Shown in pieces: positions 32,098 through 32,220 of a DNA stretch of 64,000 nucleotides. Position 1 is the first letter of the stretch. Every line of letters begins with the position of its first letter. The stretch comes from Raja brachyura (taxonomy: Eukaryota), in NCBI GenBank assembly GCA_963514005.1, contig OY740795.1, positions 33,232,001-33,296,000 of the forward strand, read 5' to 3'. The notes under the pieces are model-generated. The model was not told the DNA's origin. It did not search any database and worked only from the letters and a program-made list of their open reading frames with translations. The translations under genes were made by a program, and so were the position numbers.

Positions 32098-32220
32098 CCA
32101 GCTGTTTAGATTGAGGTGCCAGCAACCAAACTGATGGAATAAGGAGAGCCCAGAGGCTAACGTTCCTCCTTTATTGTTCCCTTCTTCCATTCCCAGCAAA
32201 ATTGCATCCCTCGGGTACAT
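32098..32220 (-). CDS. TCF7L2: Candidate alternative first coding exon of a truncated TCF7L2 isoform (41 codons)
   Basis: gcggcATG at 32220 has a purine at -3 and an in-frame TAG upstream at 32253-32251. It is open for 41 codons (MYPRDAILLGMEEGNNKGGTLASGLSLFHQFGCWHLNLNSW) to TGG|gtaagt, a phase-0 donor compatible with the SNKVPV exon. Upstream minus-strand sequence is purine-rich with no polypyrimidine tract. No transcript evidence. Confidence 0.55.

Follow-up and report, generated by a model that had tools for sequence, protein, structure and literature searches.

The closest described system is the short isoform of TCF7L2 itself (dn, S or deltaN in different papers), which is reported to be produced from a promoter within intron 5 (PMC3825142), with at least two deltaN isoforms of this gene described as arising from novel exons (PMC9303524) and at least ten alternative first exons, named exon 5'-1 to -10, reported from the mouse brain (PMC10208975; preprint 10.1101/2022.01.10.475593). 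Exons Ex1b-e of Vacik et al. 2011 are cited in PMC3468386, PMC3429047 and PMC3825142; the citing papers describe the short isoform as a truncation of about 35 kDa, “lacking the first 161 amino acids”, and the human transcripts NM_001349870.2 and NM_001349871.1 are referred to as DN-TCF7L2 (PMC13693294). Neural (thalamus/midbrain) expression has been reported for the mouse exons of the same intron (PMC10208975, PMC3825142), the short isoform being said to account for around 70% of the TCF7L2 transcripts when the mouse thalamus is still embryonic (PMC3825142) and to be needed for pup vocalisation (PMC10208975), while a 2025 preprint (10.64898/2025.12.27.696670) presents it as beta-catenin-independent and as redundant with, rather than opposed to, the long form. 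The deltaN isoforms of TCF7 and LEF1 likewise come from an internal promoter and yield a TCF without the beta-catenin-binding domain, but are described as starting at a Met inside the shared exon III (PMC9303524), whereas a dedicated TCF7L2 exon adds new sequence.

The passages of this literature considered here treat the short TCF7L2 protein as a plain truncation and mention no private N-terminal peptide. A search of openly available literature text retrieved the peptide sequence discussed below from no TCF7L2 paper, topic searches listed no title devoted to it, it was not found in the supplements of PMC9303524 within the first 400 characters of each cell, and the sections of PMC10208975 searched, together with three text supplements, held no RT-PCR primers by which the mouse exon numbers could be matched.

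The window analyzed here is a stretch of 64,000 nucleotides of the skate Raja brachyura (assembly GCA_963514005.1, contig OY740795.1, positions 33,232,001 to 33,296,000), and coordinates given below are positions within it unless the contig is named; all of the features lie on the minus strand. It harbors the TCF7L2 exon shared by the isoforms (“exon 6”, 21215-21347), whose 45 encoded residues out of 45 compared are identical to those of the Leucoraja erinacea protein XP_055502842.1 and whose start at 21347 is preceded by a pyrimidine tract and CAG, making it a phase-0 acceptor, as well as two further TCF7L2 exons with approximate limits from tblastn of database proteins (the next one at 8568-8672 and another at 7869-7961). 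The canonical N-terminal exons lie outside the window (contig OY740795.1, 33388814-33322654, the last of them being 33322654-33322764), and the alternative exon in question (contig positions 33264098-33264220) falls between this last canonical exon and the shared one, which places it inside a TCF7L2 intron of approximately 69 kb, the one known for the internal promoter of the short isoform. For the lineage-specific cassette exons annotated beside the shared exon in mammals, ray-finned fishes and frogs, tblastn at E<=0.01 found no counterpart in the window.

The coding part of this probable alternative first exon spans 32220-32098 and comprises 41 codons, Met1 to Trp41, starting with an ATG at 32220 and followed immediately after the last codon by GTAAGT (32097-32092), so that the open reading frame proposed by the first-pass annotation to end exactly at a phase-0 donor does indeed do so, and read-through of such a donor in homologous records (see below) points to the same boundary. 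Donor and acceptor both being of phase 0, the junction with the shared exon reads in frame across a predicted intron of 10,750 nt (32097-21348), whose splicing would follow that of the annotated isoforms of other species. In its intron position, in-frame start and phase-matched donor, the Raja brachyura exon thus resembles the known short-isoform first exons, and it is single-copy, as a search of the whole Raja brachyura genome gave one match and no paralogous copy of the peptide elsewhere. An open reading frame at a donor is by itself unremarkable: over the interval 21348-64000, an ORF of at least 30 codons with an ATG start ends at 4 of the 58 donors scoring at least 3, 2 of the 28 scoring at least 4 and 1 of the 13 scoring at least 5 (with approximate donor weights), and it is the cross-species conservation that lifts the peptide above chance.

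Upstream of the ATG lies what is likely a 5' UTR (32221-32408), purine-rich (82% over 60 nt and 77% over 120 nt) and free of ATGs, the nearest upstream one being at 32409, with an in-frame TAG at 32253-32251. The purine-rich leader expected from the first pass is accordingly there, while its accompanying claim that no acceptor tract is present did not hold entirely, as a weak C-T7-AG run, which failed the pyrimidine filter, ends at 32341, 120 nt upstream of the ATG and in frame with it; an exon starting at 32340 would include the in-frame TAG. Translations of the sequence preceding the ATG appear frame-shifted between close relatives, as read from proteins rather than from DNA.

The exon does not seem to stand alone in the intron. 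Three ATG/GTAAGT sites, at which an ATG directly abuts a donor, are among the eight best-scoring donors that precede the shared exon, and two of these candidate Met-only alternative first exons (35052-35044 and 34231-34223) lie 2-3 kb upstream of the 41-codon exon; chicken and marmot have annotated isoforms of the Met-only kind, and such an arrangement is what would be expected of a cluster of first exons. The third ATG/GTAAGT site, likewise a candidate Met-only first exon, is found at 52281-52273. Two ATG-started ORFs of 42 codons (34040-33915 and 33353-33228) also end at donors, weaker ones, and are probably due to chance, no convincing match for either having been found among 250 proteins (best local scores of 45 and 49). 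The translated stretch 33781-33638, interrupted by stops, has 58% agreement with a gene model from a tinamou and is followed closely downstream by a TAATTA; it probably represents conserved non-coding DNA belonging to the internal promoter region. Two Rfam matches over 29000-36500 were far below the gathering score and were taken as chance.

Whether the isoform had already been annotated, which the first-pass annotation could not tell, can now be answered, as many vertebrates have it among their predicted proteins. The isoform X18 of the skate Leucoraja erinacea (XP_055502842.1) starts with the peptide, 40 of whose 41 residues are identical to those of Raja brachyura, joined to the shared exon, and predicted isoforms with a homologous start exist in chicken (XP_015144042.1), zebrafish (XP_073773494.1) and Xenopus tropicalis (XP_031760582.1). 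When residues 1-62 of XP_055502842.1 were used as a query, 296 proteins were retrieved, the best 45 of the 120 listed containing the peptide, and the carriers among the listed matches included lizards, a snake, chicken, platypus, carnivores, rodents, sturgeon, salmonids, cypriniforms, percomorphs and frogs. A short-protein search gave the peptide in all 21 of its matches (among them “TCF7L2 isoform 29, partial [Pan troglodytes]”, as well as gene calls on contigs), and a full HMMER scan gave 23 matches, 22 of which were homologues, the remaining one being an unrelated repeat protein that was excluded. The protein-level search suggested in the first pass has therefore turned up homologous N-termini from skate to mammals, chimpanzee included, though these database records are nearly all computational models, and no curated human or mouse record was present among the cluster members listed (at most 15 per cluster). 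The models, to which no function is attached, share the homologous 41 residues and the shared exon with the Raja brachyura locus. Among 101 peptide-bearing proteins, the peptide is joined directly to the shared exon in 54, most of the others being genomic read-throughs, and 99 lack the canonical upstream exons; a Val-Ser following Trp41 in 36 of 49 homologues corresponds to read-through of a GTRAGT donor.

The length of the peptide is stable, being 41 residues in 44 of the 47 homologues of the first search (two of 35 and one of 58; three of 50 identifiers were left out, two of them mis-cut and one starting at Met11) and in 46 of the 49 of the second (two of 39 and one of 42), with all of the variants (35, 39, 42, 58) staying in frame. 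The in-frame length variants of a goby, two pipefishes and others sit in the first half of the peptide, residues 24-41 being largely intact. Met1, Tyr2 and Trp41 are invariant in all 37 distinct 41-mers of the first set, and G10, G24, Q29, W34 and L38 are each present in 36 of them. The second in-frame ATG (Met11, 32190-32188), pointed out earlier for its strong Kozak context, is present in the context GGAATGG, Met1 having G at -3 and T at +4, but it is not universally conserved: it was kept in 16 of the 37 distinct 41-mers as opposed to 37 of 37 for Met1, which led us to reject it as the main start, so that, judged by the homologous peptides, Met1 and not Met11 is the conserved start. An out-of-frame ATG at 32207-32205, between the two, could divert ribosomes that scan past Met1.

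Substitutions within the frame are milder than those expected of random point mutation, which makes it very likely that the frame is translated. Parsimony on a species tree of 40 tips, drawn up from general knowledge, gave 158 changes, and the 142 of these reachable by a single base had a mean BLOSUM62 score of -0.03 versus -0.64 +/- 0.12 for random missense changes (z of 5.3-5.6, the lowest of 200 reconstructions being 4.2); large hydrophobic residues stayed hydrophobic in 80% of approximately 50 events, as compared with 48-53% expected. Stops were absent where 5-6 were expected, a count that is biased, as a protein search recovers only open frames. In pairwise comparisons with the Raja brachyura exon, significantly conservative change relative to the null (p<0.05) was seen for only 18 of 36 orthologues, those of percomorphs, sturgeon and Xenopus not being among them. 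The stops, frameshifts and non-codon-like change named beforehand as evidence against coding occurred in none of the retrieved homologous proteins, a collection which by its nature cannot show lineages that have lost the frame. Overall, translation of the 41-codon frame appears highly probable.

As to the consequences for the protein, of the 222 positions of the Pfam CTNNB1_binding profile the skate isoform covers no more than the last 85 (138-222), whereas a full-length isoform matches 1-222, and a domain scan of the skate record shows that the HMG_box is kept (208-276); the idea, raised in the first pass, of a coding alternative N-terminus that replaces the beta-catenin-binding domain thus finds support. 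The peptide evolves at 3.9 changes per site versus 0.24 in the next exon (an approximately 16-fold difference), and unevenly so: 1.8 changes per site in residues 1-5, 5.2 in residues 6-23 and 3.1 in residues 24-41, a profile that would fit a conserved start followed by a flexible linker and a hydrophobic motif. The better-conserved hydrophobic segment, codons 24-41 (32151-32098), is the candidate binding motif, and its pattern consists of G24, hydrophobic residues at 25, 27, 28 and 31, Q29, W34, L38 and W41, with position 31 occupied by L, V, F, I, W or M and thus always hydrophobic; the helical hydrophobic moment is maximal at residues 25-33 (0.39). In the AlphaFold2 model of the whole protein the tail has a pLDDT <50 and no secondary structure, and the 41-mer modelled alone forms a helix at 19-39 with a pLDDT of about 70 (mean pLDDT 65.8, pTM 0.29), which may be taken as weak support for a folded motif.

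No Pfam family matched the 41-mer, nor did any PDB sequence at E<=10, and the ESM Atlas search was uninformative (best score of 0.77, unnamed clusters). Among 41 distinct orthologous peptides, none had an eh1-like or WRPW-like (Groucho/TLE-binding), LxxLL or CtBP-like motif, and the leucine-rich nuclear export pattern was found in none in its strict form and in 32 when Trp was allowed, against a shuffle rate of 0.42 and with the orthologues not being independent of one another. Two other ideas were set aside: an origin from the canonical N-terminal exons, whether by duplication or by mimicry, was rejected (p of 0.93-0.99 versus shuffles, seven full-length proteins), and a Met-Tyr N-degron was weakened by the Met-Asp start seen in 6 of the 49 homologues of the second set.

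Taken together, we would read 32220-32098 as the likely translated part of an alternative first exon providing a 41-residue N-terminus, specific to one of the short TCF7L2 isoforms, whose conserved second half is a predicted protein-binding motif, and would assign this reading a probability of roughly 0.6. Transcription would be started by an internal neural promoter cluster in the TCF7L2 intron, as the mouse papers suggest; the donor at 32097 would then be spliced to the exon at 21347, as the annotated isoforms and the matching phases indicate, and translation would, going by the conservation, in all likelihood begin at Met1, yielding a product predicted from the domain scan of the skate isoform to be devoid of the beta-catenin-binding part and to keep the downstream region and the HMG box. 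Such a product should recognize Wnt response elements with no beta-catenin attached, as is the case for the known short isoform. These steps, from the promoter to the loss of the beta-catenin-binding part, jointly appear highly probable. The weakest step is the last one, in which residues 24-41 of an otherwise disordered tail would adopt a short amphipathic helix upon contact with a putative partner, most likely a transcriptional co-regulator, and would thereby distinguish this isoform from the Met-only short one; such a co-regulator-binding role is the one that we favor. The feature described in the first-pass annotation is, in other words, real and was read correctly, and it is its role as a motif that we infer.

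The main rival to a binding motif is that the exon is translated and selection does nothing more than keep an in-frame start and avoid harmful residues, there being no partner and the product acting like the Met-only isoform. The fast evolution of the peptide relative to the next exon, particularly at residues 6-23, speaks in favor of such a tolerated leader, as do the tolerated in-frame losses of 2 and 6 residues and gains of 1 and 17, the lack of any motif match and the disorder in the full-length model; moreover, without the ATG of the first exon the next in-frame Met would be residue 147 of the skate isoform, so that the frame would be kept regardless. Yet a leader kept merely for its start could have escaped via Met11 or a donor-adjacent ATG, and Met1 and the length of 41 residues nevertheless persist from skate to mammals, with W34, L38, W41, G24 and Q29 nearly invariant and position 31 never losing its hydrophobicity; we consider this explanation possible but less likely than a binding motif.

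Far less probable is that the conservation reflects promoter or 5' UTR DNA, with the ORF being incidental and the protein records artefacts of annotation pipelines. That the records are mostly predicted, that ending at a donor is no rarity in itself for an ORF of 41 codons and that conserved non-coding DNA occurs nearby in the intron (33781-33638) would all agree with it, but constraint at the DNA level does not predict a conservative substitution bias (z of about 5), length changes by whole codons only or the retention of Met1 next to upstream sequence whose frame seems to differ from one close relative to another. Inclusion as an internal cassette exon, with an acceptor further upstream bringing it into the full-length TCF7L2 mRNA either as an insert or as a poison exon, seems more improbable still: the C-T7-AG run ending at 32341 is in frame with the ATG and the peptide follows a canonical N-terminus in 2 of the 101 proteins, but an exon from 32340 would hold the in-frame TAG at 32253, both of the records concerned are “hypothetical protein” models with more than 200 residues of unrelated filler, a conserved Met1 befits a start, and mouse long reads are reported to show such exons without exons 1-5 (PMC10208975).

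Returning to the reading as an alternative first exon with a predicted binding motif, the exon class has been published and the isoform is present in databases as a prediction, and both are therefore already known; what seems, provisionally, to have been overlooked is the conservation of the 41-residue peptide across jawed vertebrates under protein-level selection, with no function assigned to it. A peptide kept from skates to primates offers a precise handle on how the short isoform works, and its 123 bases, which are intronic on the full-length transcript and probably coding, matter for the reading of variants in TCF7L2-related neurodevelopmental disorder. A bolder and quite tentative suggestion is that “short TCF7L2” might be at least two proteins, one of which would have swapped the beta-catenin-binding domain for an ancient jawed-vertebrate docking peptide recruiting a different, beta-catenin-independent co-regulator in thalamic and midbrain neurons, and this, if true, would help explain how, in the embryonic thalamus, the short isoform is able to substitute for the long form.
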